Positions 54,029-63,895 of a stretch of 64,000 nt of DNA are shown here, piece after piece. Under the pieces are notes generated by a model that had not been told where the DNA came from, ran no database searches, and worked only from the letters and a program-made list of their open reading frames with translations. Numbering within the stretch: the stretch's first letter is position 1; each line of letters opens with the position of its first letter. This stretch comes from Ignavibacteria bacterium (GTDB lineage: Bacteria > Bacteroidota > Ignavibacteria > UBA10030 > F1-140-MAGs086), in contig VGWC01000004.1 of NCBI GenBank assembly GCA_016873775.1, forward strand, positions 1,830-65,829, read 5' to 3'. The translations under genes were made by a program, and so were the position numbers.

Positions 54029-55213
54029 TCATAAAATTGGATGATACGCTAAACTCGAACCCACCCACGTTTTATTTTTGTTAAAATTTACTCCCATCAT
54101 TTTTCCTTTGCTCATTCGAACAAGATTGTTCACGAGCAATGGTAGTTCTTTCCATACGAACATCATTCGTATTTCTGCTTTTGCACATCCGTCTGGAGTT
54201 TCTACGAGTTGTGCGTAGTCTATTTTTTTTTGTAAAATAAAATTTTGTTTATCAGGAATTCCGTCAAGAAGTTCTTTGGTAACATCAATTTCGACTCCAG
54301 CGCCTGCAAATGAATATAACGGCTTCAAAACGTACTGATGTAAATTTACCGGATACGTATGAAGGTCGTTCAAAAAAAACGAAGCAGGAGCGTACGCACT
54401 TTTGATGAACGGAAGAGAAAATTTGCTGATTCGGAAAAACCAATTCGGATGTCCAATCCATTCAACATCGAGTTCGTCGGTAAACTGGAAATTCAGTGAA
54501 AGGTTTTTTCGTTGAAGTTCGTCAAAGATAACGCGGTTGTAAATTTTTTCGATGAGAATTTCTTTTCCGTTTTCTTTGTAAAAAAGTTTTTTCCCTCGTT
54601 TGAAAATTTTCGTGATACATTTGCTTTTCACTCCCAGCATTGATTCTGTACACGCAAAATCAATGCGGGTTTTTTGACGTTCGGGTTCTATTTCGAGGAG
54701 AATAACATTTTCGGGAGAAGCGTTTCCGATAATAATTTCCTTGAGTAATTGAATATACGATGAGCCGTTGAAACCATTGAAATACGGTTCAAAATTATTC
54801 GGAACGAAAAAATGATTTCGTGTTACGGTATCAAGCAGCACCTGAAAACAATATAATGATGGAAAACCCTGCAGTTCTATGAGTTGCGGAATGAATGTTC
54901 CGTTTCCATCTTGAGAAATTGCAAAATCAATTTGCAGAAATGTTGGATGTTCCGTTTCATTCGGAACGACAAGATTTTTCGGAATTGCTTTTTTTGAATG
55001 TTCAAGATATTCGTTGGAAAATATGAACGAGATAATTTCGTTTGCTGCGAATACAAGTTGTCGTGTCAACGTTTCGGAAAGAAACAGCGGTGTTTCACAC
55101 GAGCGAAAATCGGTGGGATATTTTTCCTTCGTGTTGAGTTCGTGCAGAAAAGCGTTATATGCTTGTTCGGTAAATTCTTCGTTGTATTTTTTTCTAAGTT
55201 CAGGAATCATCAA
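54029..55213 (-). CDS. hypothetical protein, possible ATP-grasp-like amidoligase (last gene of the ligase operon)
   Basis: 394 aa with no canonical motif I can name. The segment LKPLYSFAGAGVEIDV resembles an ATP-grasp Gly-rich loop. It is in an operon with the YbdK, ATP-grasp and M29 peptidase genes. Confidence 0.35.
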   Translation of the reverse strand: MMIPELRKKYNEEFTEQAYNAFLHELNTKEKYPTDFRSCETPLFLSETLTRQLVFAANEIISFIFSNEYLEHSKKAIPKNLVVPNETEHPTFLQIDFAISQDGNGTFIPQLIELQGFPSLYCFQVLLDTVTRNHFFVPNNFEPYFNGFNGSSYIQLLKEIIIGNASPENVILLEIEPERQKTRIDFACTESMLGVKSKCITKIFKRGKKLFYKENGKEILIEKIYNRVIFDELQRKNLSLNFQFTDELDVEWIGHPNWFFRISKFSLPFIKSAYAPASFFLNDLHTYPVNLHQYVLKPLYSFAGAGVEIDVTKELLDGIPDKQNFILQKKIDYAQLVETPDGCAKAEIRMMFVWKELPLLVNNLVRMSKGKMMGVNFNKNKTWVGSSLAYHPIL

Positions 55214-55256
55214 TGCTTCAGTGAGAGATGAATAAAAGGAAATTGTTCTTCTTTAC

Positions 55257-56291
55257 TCAAATAAGAAACGTGCCGTTTTTCATTACTTGTTCGCTATCCA
55301 TCCAAATATCAAAACTGCGTCCAACGCAGTCAATATGCGTAGTAGAAACCCAAGTTGCGCCGGTGTGGTCGCCGTACGGATTTCCGAAAGCGATATGTAC
55401 GCCGGGAATTTTTTCATCTTGTAAAATTTGACCGCTGATTTCTTGAACGGCGATATTTGTTCCGATAGCAAATTCGCCGACTCGGTTACTGTTTTCATCT
55501 GTTGAGACATATTCGGAAAATTCATCCAGGAGTTTTTTGTTTGTGCAACGCAAATTTTTAATTATGCTATTTTCAATATCAATGAAGAGCGGCGTTTCTT
55601 TTATGTCGCCAAAACGTGGACAAAGATAATCGCCAACGACGCCGTCAACAACAAATAATCCGTTCACCGTTGCAGGAGTAGTCAGAATTTCGCCGCCGGG
55701 TAAATTTCCCCATTTTTCTGTTGTAATAATACCGCTTGTTTTCAACCATTTGAGCGAAGGAGAAAATTCTGCAATAATATTTGTACCTCCTTTTGAACGG
55801 GCGCGAATCATTTTTGCTTTTCGCGCTTTTTCAACAAGGATAGTGCTGATTGCATCAACATTGTGAAAATCTGCACGCATTCCTTCACACATAATTTTTT
55901 TGGTAATATTTACCATGTGTGCGTGTCGAATTTTATATTTGTTCACAACGTTTGTCATTTGAATGCGCGAGCCGAGTTCTCCCGATTGTGCTACACACGC
56001 AAAGATACTCACGTGCGATTTTGCAAGGTCGTCAAGAATAATTTGCGGCATATCATTGAGAGGACGTTGCGCATAATTTTCCAGAACAAACAGAGAAAAT
56101 TCTGAGCCAACGTTGATGATTTCGTGCACTAACGAAGCGGCAATTTCAAAACATTCGTTGTCGGTGATGATTGTAACTCGCTCATTGCGTTGTAAGCGCA
56201 AACAAGTACCGATGGCATTATGTGCGCCGAGTGAAAGTTCGGAATCAAAAATATTATCTTGCGGCGTATTTGTATTGTTGTATTGCGGCAT
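55257..56291 (-). CDS. M29-family (AmpS/aminopeptidase T-like) aminopeptidase
   Basis: 344 aa. ...VGEFAIGTNIAVQEISGQILQDEKIPGVHIAFGNPYGDHTGATWVSTTHIDCV... matches the conserved C-terminal GEF.IGTN...G..L.DEKI.G.VHIA.G motif of the M29 peptidase family. Confidence 0.6.
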   Translation of the reverse strand: MPQYNNTNTPQDNIFDSELSLGAHNAIGTCLRLQRNERVTIITDNECFEIAASLVHEIINVGSEFSLFVLENYAQRPLNDMPQIILDDLAKSHVSIFACVAQSGELGSRIQMTNVVNKYKIRHAHMVNITKKIMCEGMRADFHNVDAISTILVEKARKAKMIRARSKGGTNIIAEFSPSLKWLKTSGIITTEKWGNLPGGEILTTPATVNGLFVVDGVVGDYLCPRFGDIKETPLFIDIENSIIKNLRCTNKKLLDEFSEYVSTDENSNRVGEFAIGTNIAVQEISGQILQDEKIPGVHIAFGNPYGDHTGATWVSTTHIDCVGRSFDIWMDSEQVMKNGTFLI

Positions 56292-56294
56292 AAA

Positions 56295-57404
56295 TTATTG
56301 TAAACCAATGTGTGTTTCTGAAATAATATAATCAACAACTTTTTTGACATCTTGTGTTTTGTTCCACACATCAAGTTGTCTATCGGCGCCGGTTCCCATT
56401 GCGGCGATGTTCATGAGGTAATTCACATCGTTGCGGCAATCAAGTTCGTCAACCACATCGTCAACAAATTCAATCAGTTCCATCATCAATAATTTTGCAT
56501 CCACTTCTTCTTGCTTTCCCAAATCAATAAGTTTTCCTTGGATACCATATCGAGCGGCGCGCCATTTATTTTCATTGAGTAAAATTCTTCGGTATAAACG
56601 AAAACCGAGATTTGCTTTGATGAGTTTGTATAATTTTGCTGTGATTGCCTGAGCAGTTGCCGCAAGAGCAATAGTTTCATCAACGCGCATTGGTAAATCG
56701 AAGACGCGATATTCAATGGTATCAAAAAACGGATGAATGCGCACATCCCACCAAATTTTTTTAGGATTGTCAATACAGTTCAATTTGATGAGCCAACTGA
56801 TATAATTATCGTATTCCGAAAGACTCACAAAATGGTCGGGAATTCCTGTACGCGGAAATCGTTCGAAAATTTTTGTGCGATACGATTTAAATCCTGTATT
56901 TCTTCCGAGCCAAAAAGGAGAGTTCGTAGAAAATGCGAGAAGGTGCGGAAGAAAATAACGCGCGGCATTCATAATGTTAATGGCAATTTCGCGATTTGGA
57001 AGCCCAACGTGAACATGAAGTCCGAAAATTAAATTTGCGCGCGCGACATCCTGCATATCATCTACAATAGTTTTGTAACGCGGATGTTCAGTAATTTTTT
57101 GTTTTGACCAATGAGAAAAAGGATGTGTTCCTGCCGCCGCTATGCGTAATCCGCTTTCTTTTGCAAGTTGTGCAAGTGTACTTCGAAGTTGAATTACTTC
57201 TTTGCGAGCGGCTGTAATGTTTTCGCAAATGTTTGTTCCAACTTCAACGACGGATTGATGCATTTCCGGTTTTACTTGTTCCAAAAGCACACGTTTTCCT
57301 TGTTCGAGAATTTGATTGATGTGGGAACGCAATTCTCGCGTTTCCGGATCAACGATTTGAAATTCTTCTTCTATTCCGAGTGTGAATAATTTTTTTTCTG
57401 ACAT
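56295..57404 (-). CDS. ybdK: carboxylate-amine ligase, YbdK/GCS2 family (gamma-glutamylcysteine synthetase 2-like)
   Basis: 369 aa. ...LFTLGIEEEFQIVD...LRIAAAGTHPF...LIFGLHVHVGLPN...WWDVRIHPFFDTIEYRVFD... is collinear with E. coli YbdK. Confidence 0.8.
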   Translation of the reverse strand: MSEKKLFTLGIEEEFQIVDPETRELRSHINQILEQGKRVLLEQVKPEMHQSVVEVGTNICENITAARKEVIQLRSTLAQLAKESGLRIAAAGTHPFSHWSKQKITEHPRYKTIVDDMQDVARANLIFGLHVHVGLPNREIAINIMNAARYFLPHLLAFSTNSPFWLGRNTGFKSYRTKIFERFPRTGIPDHFVSLSEYDNYISWLIKLNCIDNPKKIWWDVRIHPFFDTIEYRVFDLPMRVDETIALAATAQAITAKLYKLIKANLGFRLYRRILLNENKWRAARYGIQGKLIDLGKQEEVDAKLLMMELIEFVDDVVDELDCRNDVNYLMNIAAMGTGADRQLDVWNKTQDVKKVVDYIISETHIGLQ

Positions 57405-57913
57405 AGTTTTATCAATAATAGAATTTTTATTATCTCATTACCACAAGTTTCTTCATACTTACCAAATCTACTTGCGCAGACTTTCAACAACGCATCGGTA
57501 ACGCCAACGTCGTCGGCAGTAAGTGCAATTGTTGCAGAGTCGAGTGTGGTTATTGTGAGTGTTTTGGATGAATCGTATCTCGTGTTTCCCCGCAATCGGT
57601 ATGCTTTGTAGGTATAGGTGCGTCCGCGGAAAAGTGTTGTATCGAGGAGGAGCGTATCTTGTGCAACGAGCGTATCGGTAATAAAGTGTACGCCATTTTT
57701 AAAGAGAGAAAAACTTCTCGGCGGTTTTGTCTCTGTAAAATGTAATCGCAATACTATTCTTGTAATACCAATACTTTCAGTAGATATGCTTACCGTCGGT
57801 ATATACTCCGGCATAGGAGGAATTTCTCTGCATTTCAATAAAAGCAAAAGAATAATCACTCCAGTATAGACAATTCGGAGAAACACCAAAAATATTTTTT
57901 TTGGAATATTCAT
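57371..57913 (-). CDS. small secreted or membrane-anchored hypothetical protein
   Basis: ORF 57371..57925. The probable start is MNIPKKIFLVFLRIVYTGVIILLLLL (hydrophobic N-terminus). The 3' end overlaps the ybdK start by 34 nt. No known domain. Confidence 0.35.
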   Translation of the reverse strand: MNIPKKIFLVFLRIVYTGVIILLLLLKCREIPPMPEYIPTVSISTESIGITRIVLRLHFTETKPPRSFSLFKNGVHFITDTLVAQDTLLLDTTLFRGRTYTYKAYRLRGNTRYDSSKTLTITTLDSATIALTADDVGVTDALLKVCASRFGKYEETCGNEIIKILLLIKLCQKKNYSHSE

Positions 57914-57931
57914 TCTGTGATACAATACATA

Positions 57932-58921
57932 TCACTTCTTTTTGTTTTTTACCGGTTTTTTCGTTGTAGTTGTTTTCACTGATGTCGAATACGTTTTCAC
58001 AAATTCTCCCCACGAAAGATTATTTTTTCCTTCGATATGCTCTTTTGCTTTTCTTATACACATATTCGCAACTGCTTCAACAATCCACGCAAAATTTTCT
58101 TTGCCAACGGAATGAACATCGGCATCGGGAGCAGGATTGCAAAAATCTATTGCGTACGGTATACCATCGCGAACCGCAAATTCAACAGTATTGAGATCGT
58201 ATCCGAGCCAGTGATTCAATTGTACAACATACTGTTCTATCAATTCGAGTAATTTTTTTTCTATGGGTTTTGGATTGCGAACATAGCGAAGATGATGCGG
58301 TTCTTTTGGCGCATACTGCATAATATGAACATCGCGTTGGTCAACACAGTAGCAACGGAAATAATCCGTAAAATCAATTTCTTCCTGCAACATCATTACG
58401 AGTTGTCCAGTTTGATTATATGCTTCAAAAAATTCTTCACTGGATTTTACATTGTACACGTGCTTCCATCCGCCGCCTGCAAACGGTTTGAAGAATGCGG
58501 GAAATCCAACATAGTTGAACATCGCTTCCCAATCGAGCGGAAATGCAAGGTTGCGAAATGATTGTTCCGTTGTATCTTGCGGATGATGATGTGAAGGAAG
58601 TATCACTGTTTTCGGAACGGGGACAGCGATTTTTGTTGCAAGACAGTTATTGAAAAATTTATCATCGGCGCTCCACCAAAATGGATTGTTGATAACGGCA
58701 GTTCCGCACATCGCCGCATTTTTTAAGTACGCGCGATAGAAAGGAACATCTTGTGAAATTCTGTCTACAATGACTGCGTATTCTGTTGTATCACCTTGGA
58801 ATACTTTATCAATGCGAACAAATTCAGCAACGATGCCTTTTTCATTTTTTGAATTGATTCGTTCAACCAATGCCGGGGGAAATGTATTTTCTTGTCCAAA
58901 GAGAATTCCAATTTTTTTCAT
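57932..58921 (-). CDS. ATP-grasp domain ligase (RimK-like fold)
   Basis: 329 aa with ...VPVPKTVILP...FKPFAGGGWKHVYNVKSSEEFFEAY...LVMMLQEEIDFTDYFRCYCVD...LNTVEFAVRDGIPYAIDFCNPAPD, which maps onto the ATP-grasp B-loop, the acidic metal-binding region and the C-domain. Confidence 0.6.
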   Translation of the reverse strand: MKKIGILFGQENTFPPALVERINSKNEKGIVAEFVRIDKVFQGDTTEYAVIVDRISQDVPFYRAYLKNAAMCGTAVINNPFWWSADDKFFNNCLATKIAVPVPKTVILPSHHHPQDTTEQSFRNLAFPLDWEAMFNYVGFPAFFKPFAGGGWKHVYNVKSSEEFFEAYNQTGQLVMMLQEEIDFTDYFRCYCVDQRDVHIMQYAPKEPHHLRYVRNPKPIEKKLLELIEQYVVQLNHWLGYDLNTVEFAVRDGIPYAIDFCNPAPDADVHSVGKENFAWIVEAVANMCIRKAKEHIEGKNNLSWGEFVKTYSTSVKTTTTKKPVKNKKK

Positions 58922-58975
58922 ACTGAGTAATTGAGGTAAGTGAATAAATTAATTAAATATGTAATAATAAAAACC

Positions 58976-59704
58976 TTATTGTCGTTCGCAAATTTGTGAA
59001 ACATATTGTTCAAACATTATTTTCCACCAATGCCAATCGTGCCCGAATCCTTGTCGGTCATCGAGCCAGTGTGGGACGTTGAGTGTGTCTAAGATGGCAG
59101 AAAGTTGTGCATTATCGTTACGACAAATATCTGTTTCACCGGTTCCTAAAATAATGTTCATCTCGCGGAATTTGTTTAAATACCATTCGTCCCGTAAGTT
59201 TGGAAGATAATCTGGTGGACTGTTGTAATAACAATTATCATCGTAATAATTTCCGATAAATTGTTTAATGTTAAACGCTCCTCCGAGACTAAACATATAT
59301 CCGATATGCGCAGGATGTCGGAATGCAATATTTGCAGCATGAAATCCTCCAAAACTACACCCACTAACTCCTACTTTTGAAAATCCGGTTTCTTGAATTG
59401 TCGGGAAAATTACTTCGTTTAATATCAGTTGTTCATACGCAACGTGGTTTTGAACTTTCTCAAACGGATGAATTTCATTGTTGTACCAACTGGTTGCATC
59501 ATAACTATCGGGAGTGTAAATTTGGACTTGTCCATTTTCGACATAGCGTTTCACGCATTCAATCAAACCGAAATCTCGGTATTGAAAGTAACTTCCTTTG
59601 GAGGTTGGAAATATTATTATCGGAAATCCAGATTCTCCGAACACAAGCATATCGAAATTTTTTCCGATAGAGTTTGAGAACCATTGACGATGTTCTTCTT
59701 TCAT
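58976..59704 (-). CDS. alpha/beta-hydrolase 'putative esterase' family protein
   Basis: 242 aa with the nucleophile elbow GCSFGG (GxSxG). The overall pattern is like the enterochelin-esterase/'putative esterase' family. Confidence 0.6.
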   Translation of the reverse strand: MKEEHRQWFSNSIGKNFDMLVFGESGFPIIIFPTSKGSYFQYRDFGLIECVKRYVENGQVQIYTPDSYDATSWYNNEIHPFEKVQNHVAYEQLILNEVIFPTIQETGFSKVGVSGCSFGGFHAANIAFRHPAHIGYMFSLGGAFNIKQFIGNYYDDNCYYNSPPDYLPNLRDEWYLNKFREMNIILGTGETDICRNDNAQLSAILDTLNVPHWLDDRQGFGHDWHWWKIMFEQYVSQICERQ

Positions 59705-59823: not shown

Positions 59824-60243
59824 TCAAAACAAATATTTCTTCGGAAGAATTATCACTATTCCCGCTGCTAAAATTCCTCCTAACGTATCTGCAAGAAAAT
59901 CGTACAACTCCGGCGAACGTCCAGGCACAAACATTTGGTGAATTTCATCCGATGCGCCGTACAGCATTACATAGAGAACAGCGAAAAGCAATGCGTACTT
60001 TTTTAACGTCGTATTCCATTCTTGAAATAAAAATGCTCTCGCAGATAACATTCCTAAAACAAAGAATACCCCGAAGTGCAAAAGTTTGTCAAAACTAAAA
60101 AATTGAAATGGAAATTTTATTCCCGGAATTGATGACATTGTAAAGATAAACAACGACCACACTATTGCCGGCAACTGATATCGCGCAAACGAAGGAAATT
60201 TTTTTTGTGATAGTTCGTTCACCATTCTACGTTCTGTCAACAA
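59824..60243 (-). CDS. VanZ-family membrane protein
   Basis: 139 aa with four hydrophobic helices and ...YGASDEIHQMFVPGRSPELYDFLADTLGGILA..., the VanZ-like motif. Confidence 0.65.
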   Translation of the reverse strand: MLTERRMVNELSQKKFPSFARYQLPAIVWSLFIFTMSSIPGIKFPFQFFSFDKLLHFGVFFVLGMLSARAFLFQEWNTTLKKYALLFAVLYVMLYGASDEIHQMFVPGRSPELYDFLADTLGGILAAGIVIILPKKYLF

Positions 60244-61801
60244 TATGCATCGCCGATGAAAGCGAATCGCTGATATCCATTGCCATTATTGAACGCTTAC
60301 CGAATTTCTCTTCTGCAATATCACCCGCAAGTCCGTGCAAATATGCGCTAATGATTGCAGAGCGTTGAAGTTTTTCTTCAAAGGAAATATTTTCCGATTT
60401 CATTTGTGCAAGTATTCCTGCAACCGTTCCCGTCAAAACATCGCCGCTTCCTGCTGTTGCCATTCCGGGATTTCCTGTGGAATTGAGAAAAACTTTTCCA
60501 TTCGGTGCTGCAATCACAGTCGGATTTCCTTTCAATACTACAATTGCATTCAATTTCTTTGATGAACTTCTCGCAATTTCAACACGATGCGTTTCAATTT
60601 CTTCTGATGAAATTCCAAGCATACGAGAAAGTTCCCCGCTATGAGGAGTGAATATGCAATTCGTAATTTGTAATTCGTAATTCGTAATTGCAGAAAGCGC
60701 ATCTGCATCAATCACCATCGGCTTTGTGCACGATGAAATTATTTCGGCAACAAGCGATTGTGTTTCTTTGTTTTGGGAAATTCCGGGACCGATAGCAACA
60801 ACATCGCACCATTCAATTCGCTCAAGAATTTTTTCTTTTGCAGAAAGTGAAATTGTTCCTTCGCTTGTTTCATCGAGTGGTTCAAGCATTACTTCCGTAA
60901 GTTTTTTTACCAGCAACGGATAGAGTGATTTCACCGTTCCGAGAATTACTGCTCCTGCGCCTACTCTCATTGCGCTTGTTGCAGTCATAAACGCTGCCCC
61001 GGGAAATTGTTGCGAACCTGCAAGCACAAACACTTTTCCGACAGAATATTTATTTGCGTTTAGTTTTCGTTTCGGAAGAAAATCTTCAACATCATTTTTT
61101 TCAACAAGAAAAGTATAGCGTTTTTCTTTGAGGAATTTTTTCGGAATGGAAATATCTGCGACTTCAATTTTTCCAGAACATTCTTTGCCATCGTTCACAA
61201 GCAAACCGATTTTTTTTGCCGCCATTGTTACCGTGAGTTGTGCTTTCACGGCAACATTCGTTTTCATTCCGTTATCAGAATTTATTCCCGAAGGAATATC
61301 GAGAGCAACAATTGGCTTTTTACTTTCATTCATCCACTCGATAATTTCCGAATACGGTTTTCGCACTTCACAGGAAAATCCGGTTCCGAATAATGCATCA
61401 ATAATGAAATCGCAACGCGGACAATTTTTTGAGAATGCTCTTTGTATTTCTCTGAAAGAAAAGAGCGAAGTGTTTTTTGTTTTCTTCTGAAGTTGAAGAA
61501 CAATATCGAGATTGGTTTTTGCATCACCTTTGACATCGGATTTTTTTCCAACAAGGAGAATGTGAACATATCCTCCGCGATTGAATAAATGCCGCGCAAC
61601 AACAAACCCATCGCCGCCGTTGTTTCCTTTTCCGCAAACGATGAGAAATGATTTTTCCGCAACACTTCCAAAATGTTTTTCCATTGAATCAACAACGCTT
61701 CGTCCTGCATTTTCCATCAACAATAATGAAGGAAGAGAATACTCTTCTCCTGCTTGTTTATCGCAGGAACGCATTTCGTCAGTTGAGAGAAGTATTTCCA
61801 T
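60227..61801 (-). CDS. nnr: bifunctional NAD(P)H-hydrate repair enzyme (epimerase + ADP-dependent dehydratase)
   Basis: 524 aa. The N-terminal YjeF-N domain has ...LIVCGKGNNGGDGFVVARHL.... The C-terminal carbohydrate-kinase-like domain has ...GPGISQNKET...TGNPGMATAGSGDVLTG.... Confidence 0.85.
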   Translation of the reverse strand: MEILLSTDEMRSCDKQAGEEYSLPSLLLMENAGRSVVDSMEKHFGSVAEKSFLIVCGKGNNGGDGFVVARHLFNRGGYVHILLVGKKSDVKGDAKTNLDIVLQLQKKTKNTSLFSFREIQRAFSKNCPRCDFIIDALFGTGFSCEVRKPYSEIIEWMNESKKPIVALDIPSGINSDNGMKTNVAVKAQLTVTMAAKKIGLLVNDGKECSGKIEVADISIPKKFLKEKRYTFLVEKNDVEDFLPKRKLNANKYSVGKVFVLAGSQQFPGAAFMTATSAMRVGAGAVILGTVKSLYPLLVKKLTEVMLEPLDETSEGTISLSAKEKILERIEWCDVVAIGPGISQNKETQSLVAEIISSCTKPMVIDADALSAITNYELQITNCIFTPHSGELSRMLGISSEEIETHRVEIARSSSKKLNAIVVLKGNPTVIAAPNGKVFLNSTGNPGMATAGSGDVLTGTVAGILAQMKSENISFEEKLQRSAIISAYLHGLAGDIAEEKFGKRSIMAMDISDSLSSAMHIVDRT

Positions 61802-61911: not shown

Positions 61912-63345
61912 CTACCAACTTTTTGTAATCAAATTTGTCAGCAATGAAGGAAACATTCCGAAAATAATAACACCGATTGCGGCGAGAGAAATTGCGGCAA
62001 AAGAAATGCGCGAGGCGGAAACAATAAGTTCCGTTTCACTATTTTTGAAATACATCAGCACGACAATGCGCAAATAATAATATGCGGCTATTGCACTTGT
62101 AAGAACTCCGATAATTGCAAGCCACGTGAATCCACCGCTCACTGCGGCGGCAAACACATAATATTTTCCGAAGAAACCTGCGAATGGAGGAATACCGGAA
62201 AGCGAGAACATAAAAATCGCGAACATTGCCGCAAGCGCCGGTTGTTTTTGCGAAAAGCCCGCGTAATCATTGAGTGAAAGATTTGTTTCCTCAATTTGTT
62301 CAACGAGGGAAATTACTCCGAACGCGCCAAGATTCATCAATGTGTATGCGGCGAGATAAAATAAAATTCCCTGCACGCCGTATTGTGTTCCCGATGCAAG
62401 TCCCGCAAGCATATATCCTGCGTGGGCAATACTGCTGTACGCTAACATTCGTTTGATGTTCGTTTGAGAAATTGCAACAACATTTCCGAGAATCATCGAA
62501 GCGGCAGAAATAATTGCAAGCGCAAGAGAAAGTTTTTCGTGTGAAAAATTTTGCGATGTATGTCCGACGATGTTTGCAAATGCGAGGAGAAATCCTGAGA
62601 ACGCTGCAGTTTTTCCCGTTGTTGCCATAAATGCAGTAACCGAAGTTGGCGCGCCTTCGTACACATCCGGCGCCCACATATGAAACGGAACAGCCGCTAC
62701 TTTAAAAGCAAAACCGATAAGCAACAATCCGATACCGAGCCAAAATAACATAGAAGTTTGTAATGAATCGAGTTCGGAAATAATCATAGCGATGTTTGTT
62801 GTTCCCGATGAACCGTACAGTAATGCAATTCCGTAGAGAAGAAATCCTGTTGCAAATGCGCCAAGCAAAAAATATTTCAATGCAGATTCATTCGATGTCG
62901 TACGTTTGCGCAGAAATCCCGCAAGAACATAAAAACACACCGACATCAATTCTATTCCGATAAACATCATCATTAAATCGCCAGCGGAAGTGAGAAACAT
63001 CATTCCTAATACTGCTGAAAGCAACAACGCATAATATTCTCCGAAGTGAATTTCTAATTTTTCCAAATACGAACGTGATAGTAATATCGTGAGAATAGTT
63101 CCGCAGAGTAAAACAAGTGTGCAGAATCGCGTGAAGCCATCTACAAGTACCATTCCATTGAAAACCGTTTGTTGCAGGGTTTGATTGAATGTAACAAAAA
63201 ACGCTGCAAGTGTTCCAACAAGCGATACCCAAAAACTGATACGAGCGTTTTCTTTATACAGTGCATCAACGAGAATAATGAGAAGTGTAACGAGAGCAAT
63301 GACAATCATCGGCAGAACGCCAACGAGATTTGCTGTAATATTCAT
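61912..63345 (-). CDS. nuoN: complex I antiporter-like subunit (NuoN/NuoM/MrpD family proton-conducting membrane transporter)
   Basis: The ORF is open to 63819, but the N-terminal 158 aa extension is low-complexity. The internal Met at 63343-63345 gives MNITANLVGVLPMIVIALVTLLIILVDALY..., a typical NuoN start. About 14 transmembrane helices, 478 aa. Confidence 0.75.
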   Translation of the reverse strand: MNITANLVGVLPMIVIALVTLLIILVDALYKENARISFWVSLVGTLAAFFVTFNQTLQQTVFNGMVLVDGFTRFCTLVLLCGTILTILLSRSYLEKLEIHFGEYYALLLSAVLGMMFLTSAGDLMMMFIGIELMSVCFYVLAGFLRKRTTSNESALKYFLLGAFATGFLLYGIALLYGSSGTTNIAMIISELDSLQTSMLFWLGIGLLLIGFAFKVAAVPFHMWAPDVYEGAPTSVTAFMATTGKTAAFSGFLLAFANIVGHTSQNFSHEKLSLALAIISAASMILGNVVAISQTNIKRMLAYSSIAHAGYMLAGLASGTQYGVQGILFYLAAYTLMNLGAFGVISLVEQIEETNLSLNDYAGFSQKQPALAAMFAIFMFSLSGIPPFAGFFGKYYVFAAAVSGGFTWLAIIGVLTSAIAAYYYLRIVVLMYFKNSETELIVSASRISFAAISLAAIGVIIFGMFPSLLTNLITKSW

Positions 63346-63515
63346 AAAGTTGTTTTGACGAAAAAAATTATGGACAAAAATACAGAAATAGTAAAGTAAA
63401 ATCAATGGAAGTGAAAGAAATAACGGATGGAGTTTCACGAGTGTTGTTCCTGTACCTATGGCTCGGAGAGCGTACAATCTGCACGAAATTTTTTTTGGAA
63501 GATTAAATCTGATTT

Positions 63516-63606
63516 GAGAGATGGAGTCCACCTTGTTTATTGAAAACTGTGAACTCATTAAAGTTTCTCGGCAATGACAAATAAAGGTGGACTCCATCTT
63601 GACACA
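63516..63606. other. long inverted repeat (16 bp perfect arms AGATGGAGTCCACCTT / AAGGTGGACTCCATCT, extendable with mismatches, 49 nt spacer)
   Basis: Read directly at 63519-63534 and 63584-63599. It lies in the intergenic region upstream of both the nuoN-like gene (-) and the antitoxin-like gene (+). Confidence 0.6.
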
Positions 63607-63679
63607 ATTTGATGCAAACAACATTTTGCTTTGCTCATAAAGATTTGTATTTTCTCCCCAACAATTTTTCAACAAACTT

Positions 63680-63895
63680 ATGCAACAACTTTTAACAGTA
63701 GATATAGCACTCGATACATTATCCCAACTTTCGCTTGACGACCAAATTATGGTTTCGGAAATACTTGCGAAACGAGCCATAGAACAACGACGAAACGAAT
63801 TAGCAGAATCCATACGCATTAGCAGAGAAGAATATGCTCAAGGAAAAACGGGAAGCGGCTCTGTTGATGATTTTCTTGCAAGCATGAAAGACTAA
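63680..63895 (+). CDS. putative antitoxin / addiction-module component (small helical protein)
   Basis: 71 aa MQQLLTVDIALDTLSQLSLDDQIMVSEILAKRAIEQRRNELAESIRISREEYAQGKTGSGSVDDFLASMKD. Its size and the L..LS..D...L.E.L pattern resemble small addiction-module antitoxin components. The stop overlaps the next ATG (TAATG). Confidence 0.4.
   Translation: MQQLLTVDIALDTLSQLSLDDQIMVSEILAKRAIEQRRNELAESIRISREEYAQGKTGSGSVDDFLASMKD

Follow-up and report, generated by a model that had tools for sequence, protein, structure and literature searches.

An operon encoding three predicted ATP-dependent amide-bond ligases along with two hydrolases, found in at least five bacterial phyla

We analyzed a group of minus-strand genes in a 64,000-nucleotide stretch of the genome of an Ignavibacteria bacterium (GenBank assembly GCA_016873775.1, contig VGWC01000004.1, positions 1,830 to 65,829; hereafter the window), and found that they belong to a conserved operon that encodes three predicted ATP-dependent amide-bond ligases of three types, together with two hydrolases. 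The first gene of the operon, EST (window positions 58976-59704), encodes an alpha/beta-hydrolase, probably of the PF00756 'esterase' type, with 242 residues. It is followed by GRASP (57932-58921), a classical ATP-grasp carboxylate-amine ligase of 329 residues assigned by its fold and a weak match to TIGR00768, and by GCS2 (56295-57404), a YbdK-family carboxylate-amine ligase of 369 residues with a gamma-glutamyl-type ligase fold (PF04107, NF010039). The last two genes are M29 (55257-56291), encoding a metallo-(amino)peptidase-like hydrolase of 344 residues (PF02073), and LIG (54029-55213), whose product of 394 residues was recognized as an ATP-grasp ligase of the glutathione-synthetase, GspS or circularly permuted type from its AlphaFold model and Foldseek comparison. 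A further open reading frame, orf184 (57371-57925), lies between GRASP and GCS2 on the same strand, and encodes an ORFan protein of 184 residues with a signal-anchor and a beta-rich region.

All six open reading frames that a first-pass annotation of this DNA had placed here were re-found in the open reading frame listing, with short gaps or overlaps between them (from EST to LIG, 54 nt, 6 nt, a 34-nt overlap, 3 nt and 43-46 nt). The distance between GRASP and GCS2 is 527 nt when orf184 is left out of the gene count. The GC content is ∼38%, and the cluster shows no compositional break. Most of the family labels given earlier were right, with GCS2 and M29 passing Pfam cut-offs and GRASP being identified by fold. 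The description of the cluster as a six-gene operon, however, holds for five genes, which form the conserved operon, and not for orf184, which is a lineage-specific insertion.

Conservation of the operon and the orf184 insertion

We assembled 84 neighborhoods centered on LIG, 64 of which came from other species and included at least 5 kb of upstream sequence. Across the 84 loci, LIG was accompanied by GCS2 in 51, by GRASP in 43, by a class-I glutamine amidotransferase-like (GATase-like) protein in 33, by EST in 25 and by M29 in 24; EST was found upstream of GRASP in its 25 loci. GRASP and GCS2 were seen upstream of LIG on one strand, with M29, the GATase-like gene or no gene directly before LIG, in 41 of the 64 loci, much more often than chance would allow, indicating that the amidoligase operon proposed earlier is real. 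The full order, EST-GRASP-GCS2-(M29, GATase-like or none)-LIG, occurs in Ignavibacteria, Verrucomicrobiota, Acidobacteriota, Bacteroidota, Calditrichota and Cloacimonetes, with gaps of 0-250 nt, and the operon is common to at least five bacterial phyla. Carriers among the Bacteroidota include cultured members of Hymenobacter and Spirosoma, and Chitinophaga fulva. The presence of an esterase and an extra ligase had been regarded as an unusual combination, but both are regular members of the conserved operon.

A distant version of the operon, in the order EST-GRASP-GCS2-GATase-LIG, encodes proteins that are only 32% (LIG), 38% (GRASP) and 30% (EST) identical to those of the window. Since gene order is kept at 32% identity of LIG, the linkage must be ancient, and cannot be the result of recent transfer alone. 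A scan of metagenomes that started from GRASP yielded 34 loci with enough sequence for a neighbor to be visible; GCS2 adjoined GRASP in 33 of these, and LIG was present in 21. In GRASP loci that lacked LIG, the next genes were unrelated ones, such as that for an extracytoplasmic function (ECF) sigma factor. Conversely, the GATase-like gene and LIG stood by themselves in 10 of the 64 loci, mostly from Bacteroidota. The operon thus consists of two modules, (EST)-GRASP-GCS2 and (GATase-like or M29)-LIG, which are usually joined as one.

No conserved small gene for a precursor or carrier, of either the LysW type or the type found with peptides made on the ribosome and modified after translation (RiPPs) and graspetides, was found beside GRASP, where the only extra open reading frame was orf184. 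This argues against a precursor or carrier encoded in cis. The gaps within the operon are too short to hold a conserved small open reading frame. The product of orf184 had no match in Pfam, NCBIfam or PADLOC, and a search of 5.8 billion proteins returned a single match, which was the protein itself. No significant tblastn match to it was obtained in any of the 83 genome loci that were fetched. In the closest syntenic relative, whose LIG is 77% identical, the gap between GRASP and GCS2 is 47 nt at the place where the window carries orf184, and the flanks are those of the window (NuoN-Nnr-VanZ on one side, HIT-EF-G on the other), indicating that orf184 sits in a lineage-specific insertion of ∼530 nt. 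No repeat of this insertion was found elsewhere in the window. The codon-usage score of orf184 in its own frame was 0.167, the best of the six frames (0.26 ± 0.08 for real genes), and its GC content at first codon positions is low. As its codon usage is coding-like, we do not call it spurious; it is probably a real ORFan, a passenger insertion that interrupts the operon. The suggestion that this small exported protein might serve as a substrate or carrier did not survive these comparisons, as it is absent from 83 of 83 fetched loci, including the syntenic relative, and has no homologue but itself.

Ligases and hydrolases of the operon

The best sequence model for GRASP was TIGR00768 (rimK_fam), with a score of 29.5 bits against a cut-off of 143.4 (E = 4.5e-7), and membership of the RimK family was rejected on this basis. 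The AlphaFold model of GRASP (mean predicted local distance difference test score, pLDDT, of 85) was compared with known structures using Foldseek, and matched Ddl, ArgX/LysX, RimK, synapsin and the RiPP ligase PsnB about equally well (E ∼1e-12, template modelling (TM) score ∼0.6). The predicted structure therefore places GRASP within the ATP-grasp superfamily. Residues K145, E180, D259 and N262 were invariant among 42 homologues and, judging by their positions in the ATP-grasp motifs, would be catalytic. GRASP is 62-75% identical between phyla. The protein ends in a lysine-rich C-terminal tail (window 57932-57990, minus strand; TTTKKPVKNKKK) that is modeled with pLDDT <50 and is variable among homologues.

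GCS2 matched PF04107 with 211 bits (cut-off 21) over residues 9-287, and NF010039 with 534 bits (cut-off 371). Its best matches in the PDB were the YbdK structures 1r8g and 1tt4 (E ∼1e-46), and its identity between phyla is 57-73%. We rejected the assignment of GCS2 as a bona fide glutamate-cysteine ligase, because its scores against the gshA equivalog models were all below cut-off (NF010043, 354 against 409; NF010041, 295 against 332; others lower). A tandem duplication of GCS2 within the operon was seen in a metagenome-assembled genome of Spartobacteria (L045:4512-6876).

LIG had no match in Pfam, NCBIfam or PADLOC, and the window protein did not match GSP_synth (PF03738), CP_ATPgrasp_1/2 or GSH_synth_ATP even at E≤1. 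Among 46 relatives of LIG, weak matches to GSP_synth were seen in 17 (best E 5e-4) and to CP_ATPgrasp_2 in five (best E 1e-5; one example scored 16.6 bits against a cut-off of 32), and a profile search produced a weak match to YgiC spanning the K-P-x-x-S-x-x-G region. The AlphaFold model of LIG was of high confidence (pLDDT 92, predicted TM score 0.91). Foldseek comparison with the PDB returned 3n6x (a putative GspS), 1m0w, 8fbz, 9cjn, 7uk8 and 2io7, with E values from 1e-13 to 1e-10 and TM scores of ∼0.6, and a probability of 1.00 for 3n6x, 1m0w, 8fbz, 7uk8 and 2io7. GspS, YgiC/YjfC and the glutathione synthetases of yeast and humans were among the matches to this fold (E values from 1e-13 to 1e-9). 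By the fold it shares with them in the model, LIG belongs to the superfamily of glutathione synthetase, GspS and circularly permuted ATP-grasp enzymes, in agreement with the earlier proposal that it is an additional ligase. Its reading frame contains an ATG at 55210 that would give a protein of 393 residues, matching the length in relatives, and this is probably the true start. The LIG family is large, comprising >8000 clusters at 90% identity and 1228 clusters at 50% identity (E≤1e-3), and was found at no fewer than 597 loci in a collection with one genome per species.

Some relatives of LIG differ in architecture or setting. A subgroup (P0144, P0147, P0193 and P0194; L088:545-4861) carries a signal peptide and a helical N-terminal extension of ∼150 residues that has no Pfam match, implying a secreted or periplasmic ATP-grasp-like protein. 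Downstream of P0147 is a gene for a protein of 836 residues with PGM1_C and ATP-grasp domains, a peptide ligase of the pheganomycin type. A relative with 28% identity directly follows genes for a radical-SAM protein and an unannotated protein of 346 residues (L089:3-3347), possibly a different, RiPP-like context for the LIG fold. In a single case, P0121 (870 residues), one protein combines a complete LIG domain with a sodium:solute symporter (PF00474); this fusion may be real, hinting at an imported substrate, or may be an artefact of gene calling. A search for fusions in other long relatives gave no Pfam match to their N-terminal extensions.

The match of M29 to PF02073 (40.9 bits, cut-off 27) covers only positions 202-353 of the 406 in the profile, that is, its C-terminal half. 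Residues E273 (EFAxGTN), H299 (HxAFG), and H319 and D321 (HID) were invariant among 24 orthologues, and we take them to be metal ligands from what is known of M29 motifs. The slot upstream of LIG, filled by M29 in the window, is elsewhere either empty or occupied by the GATase-like protein of 281 residues, and the two genes are mutually exclusive. The GATase-like protein matched PF00117 with 36 bits, and not Peptidase_C26, and contains a QFHPE motif and invariant residues Cys108, His211 and Glu213. LIG remains ∼60% identical to the window protein whether its partner is M29 or the GATase-like protein. Such an exchange beside a nearly unchanged LIG points to a shared role as hydrolase, and suggests that the two enzymes hydrolyze the same kind of bond, either an N-terminal or a gamma-glutamyl amide.

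EST of the window gave weak matches to Abhydrolase_1 and ABHD18 (E ∼5e-3). Two of its orthologues were scored against PF00756 (cut-off 22); the Chitinophaga protein passed with 38.7 bits, and that of an Ignavibacteria locus fell just under with 21.9 bits. The G-x-S117-x-G motif retains Ser117 in 20 of 21 orthologues, and Asp192 and His222 are conserved as well, consistent with a Ser-Asp-His triad. A second PF00756 esterase (110 bits), transcribed divergently, flanks the cluster in 13 loci.

Proposed pathway and competing explanations

Given that the operon has three ligases and one or two hydrolases but lacks a precursor encoded in cis, its most economical explanation is that it builds a small peptide or pseudopeptide metabolite step by step at the expense of ATP, independently of non-ribosomal peptide synthetases and with hydrolases of its own. 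We give this reading a probability of about one half. The conservation of predicted catalytic residues in all enzymes of the operon speaks in its favor, and ATP-grasp and COOH-NH2 ligases that are linked in operons usually carry out successive ligations, as in the formation of glutathione, cyanophycin and antibiotics (PMC4431377). In the pathway that we infer, GCS2 would join two common metabolites through a first amide bond, probably of the gamma-glutamyl type, and GRASP would append a further residue by way of an acyl-phosphate intermediate. LIG could then join a carboxylate to a third component, either an amine or an amino acid. M29, or the GATase-like protein elsewhere, may remove or recycle one residue, comparable to the amidase of GspS or to a gamma-glutamyl 'deprotection', and EST, as a putative serine hydrolase, might cut an ester, thioester or amide of the product. 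The order of these steps, the substrates and the product are all part of this proposal.

Several observations weigh against such a pathway. An identity of 62-75% between phyla is unusual for an enzyme of secondary metabolism, and the strong conservation of GRASP might rather stem from a macromolecular substrate that is itself conserved, or from horizontal transfer. The nearest sequence models of GRASP, RimK and LysX/ArgX, act on the C-termini of proteins. GspS-like paralogues such as YgiC lack GspS activity, according to the passage of PMC12506659 that cites Sui et al. (2012), so that the likeness of LIG in fold says little about its substrates. It could also be that the GATase-like partner donates ammonia and is not a peptidase. 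Finally, a hydrolase is missing altogether from some loci, and the two modules are also found apart.

The same features of GRASP would fit a system that tags proteins or peptides, in which the ligases would attach amino acids, at the C-terminus or on a side-chain, to a protein whose gene lies at another locus, and EST and M29 or the GATase-like protein would trim or remove the tag. RimK and LysX are its best, if weak, sequence models, and its structural neighbors include ArgX/LysX, RimK and RiPP ATP-grasp ligases; moreover, a conserved macromolecular substrate would account for the identity between phyla, and no exporter is linked to the operon. However, GRASP is equally similar to ligases of small molecules such as Ddl, its score of 29.5 bits is far under the TIGR00768 cut-off, and the operon offers no conserved small open reading frame, carrier or precursor, the sole candidate (orf184) being specific to one lineage. 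Known GCS2 enzymes and those of the eukaryotic glutathione synthetase (eu-GS) and GspS type also act on small molecules. We consider tagging unlikely, and keep it open on account of the strong conservation of GRASP and its resemblance to RimK and LysX. A chance adjacency of unrelated genes might be argued from flanks that vary between genomes and from modules that can occur separately. It is refuted by the neighborhood analysis, since no fewer than 41 of the 64 loci, drawn from several phyla, show the same order and strand, as does the distant version with 32% identity, and we give it practically no weight.

A special case of metabolite assembly is a thiol pathway resembling that of glutathione or glutathionylspermidine, with GCS2 forming gamma-Glu-Cys, the ATP-grasp enzyme adding a third residue, LIG adding an amine and the hydrolase acting as an amidase. 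As judged by fold, the enzyme types form a striking parallel to GshA, GshB and GspS-plus-amidase. S-formylglutathione hydrolases, which would suit this scheme, are also members of PF00756. The operon is common in Verrucomicrobiota, a phylum without a known or predicted low-molecular-weight thiol, but N-methyl-bacillithiol has already been predicted for Ignavibacteriae (PMC6282198). In addition, all gshA equivalog models scored below cut-off (NF010043, for example, as given above), no reductase, glutathione S-transferase or glutaredoxin is linked to the operon, and YgiC and YjfC, as portrayed in the source cited for YgiC, illustrate that GspS chemistry does not follow from a GspS-like fold. We regard this pathway as quite improbable. 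An equally speculative extension is that the operon makes a new and widespread peptide cofactor of the gamma-glutamyl type, for instance a thiol or thiol-amine conjugate that fills the thiol gap of Verrucomicrobiota, with the LIG family as the terminal synthetase. Very unlikely, in our view, is a function in amide or amine use, in which the GATase-like protein would provide ammonia to LIG, as CarA does to CarB, or GCS2 would gamma-glutamylate an amine as in the Puu pathway and the hydrolase would free the glutamate. The GATase-like protein does have an intact Cys-His-Glu triad and the QFHPE motif, belongs with PF00117 rather than Peptidase_C26, and forms a tight stand-alone pair with LIG in many Bacteroidota, and in the most distant complete operon the gene directly downstream of LIG encodes a class-III aminotransferase. 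On the other hand, in 24 loci the slot is filled by M29, and in others it is empty, and neither arrangement is able to supply ammonia; nor is the operon linked to the oxidoreductases or aldehyde dehydrogenases that typify Puu-like catabolism.

We then compared the operon with known systems. The proposed successive ligations by enzymes of the glutamate-cysteine ligase, ATP-grasp and GspS/eu-GS folds, together with a reversing hydrolase, recall the glutathione and glutathionylspermidine system (GshA, GshB and Gss). Unlike Gss, the operon hydrolase is M29 or GATase-like and not a CHAP amidase, and an extra esterase is present; unlike GshA and GspS, GCS2 is of the YbdK type and fails the gshA cut-offs, and LIG is not a member of the GSP_synth or GSH_synth Pfam families. 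LIG finds its best structural and weak sequence matches, at ∼12-17% identity, in Escherichia coli YgiC/YjfC and proteins of the 3n6x type, which likewise have no assigned substrates. YgiC and YjfC occur beside DUF1190-type genes, and circularly permuted ATP-grasp proteins beside alpha-E and transglutaminase genes. None of these genes is present in this operon. Among named sequence models, RimK and LysX-ArgX come nearest to GRASP, and they are also close to it in structure, but no gene for an S6-like or LysW-like substrate lies in the vicinity, and Ddl and RiPP ligases match GRASP equally well.

Neither the folds nor the general logic of the operon are new, and the prediction of such systems dates from 2009. 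In that year Iyer, Abhiman, Burroughs and Aravind reportedly used comparative genomics to describe ATP-grasp and GCS2 ligases in association with peptidases of unrelated folds, and predicted that they make peptide metabolites or tags. A search of the literature that did not cover this 2009 catalogue found nothing on the present gene combination and no experimental work, in line with the earlier statement that the products are uncharacterized. Fungal Cp1B (9cjn), an ATP-grasp enzyme similar to eu-GS, ligates small-molecule acids to amino acids in the synthesis of E-64 (PMC12568646). LIG shares the eu-GS-like fold with it, and the Cp1B pathway, as proposed for the operon, proceeds by successive amide ligations independently of non-ribosomal peptide synthetases; however, Cp1B is eukaryotic, has other partner enzymes and is 12% identical to LIG.

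If metabolite assembly is the correct reading, at least several hundred bacterial species carry a compact module of five genes that would specify a novel, small peptide-like metabolite. Its carriers include abundant soil Verrucomicrobiota, Chitinophagaceae, Acidobacteriota and Ignavibacteria, and the question is directly testable in the cultured carriers Chitinophaga fulva, Hymenobacter sp. YC55 and Spirosoma terrae. The LIG family, which no Pfam or NCBIfam model covers and which is annotated everywhere as 'hypothetical', is an easy target for family definition and enzymology, and the interchange of M29 and the GATase-like protein provides a testable clue to the chemistry, namely hydrolysis of an N-terminal or gamma-glutamyl amide.

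Neighboring genes and window context

A Pfam census of 119 flanking open reading frames revealed no recurrent transporter, regulator, redox or other partner apart from the PF00756 esterases; the remaining flanking genes reflected lineage synteny (MutS, DUF1684, DAHP synthase, KBL/TDH). A search of Rfam, even at E≤1, found no riboswitch or other known RNA upstream of or within the operon. None of the six proteins matched an anti-phage defense system in PADLOC, and no copies of the operon were found on viral contigs.

Just upstream of the operon in the window, and on the same strand, are genes for a VanZ-family membrane protein (59824-60243) and for Nnr, the bifunctional NAD(P)H-hydrate repair enzyme (60227-61801), which overlap by 17 nt. 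We place them outside the system, as they are syntenic in the closest relative only. Beyond them, also on the minus strand, is a NuoN-type (Proton_antipo_M) open reading frame of 635 residues (61912-63819), whose orthologue in the syntenic relative has 477 residues; judging from this difference in length, its first ∼150 codons are probably untranslated. The region from 1 to 50000 of the window contains genes for multihaem cytochromes (c7, c3 and MtrC-like), molybdenum-cofactor biosynthesis, CHASE2 adenylate/guanylate cyclases and a PEGA-domain protein, as well as three tRNAs; genes for glutathione, bacillithiol or polyamine metabolism were not found in this region.

Individual operons have neighbors of their own. 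In the most distant complete operon, the class-III aminotransferase gene begins 2 nt past LIG (L087:7507-8715), and a thioredoxin-fold gene is located upstream of EST (L087:2054-2479). In some Ignavibacteria (L002:11179-14372 and L006:8283-11498), a gene for an AraC-type regulator overlaps the stop codon of LIG, and the next genes encode a protein with an HMA domain and a heavy-metal P-type ATPase; this arrangement may represent a regulatory or metal link, or plain synteny. In seven other Ignavibacteria loci (L001:11295-15005, L007, L008, L010, L011, L017 and L018), a protein of ∼1240 residues with an alpha-amylase catalytic domain is encoded right after LIG on the same strand.

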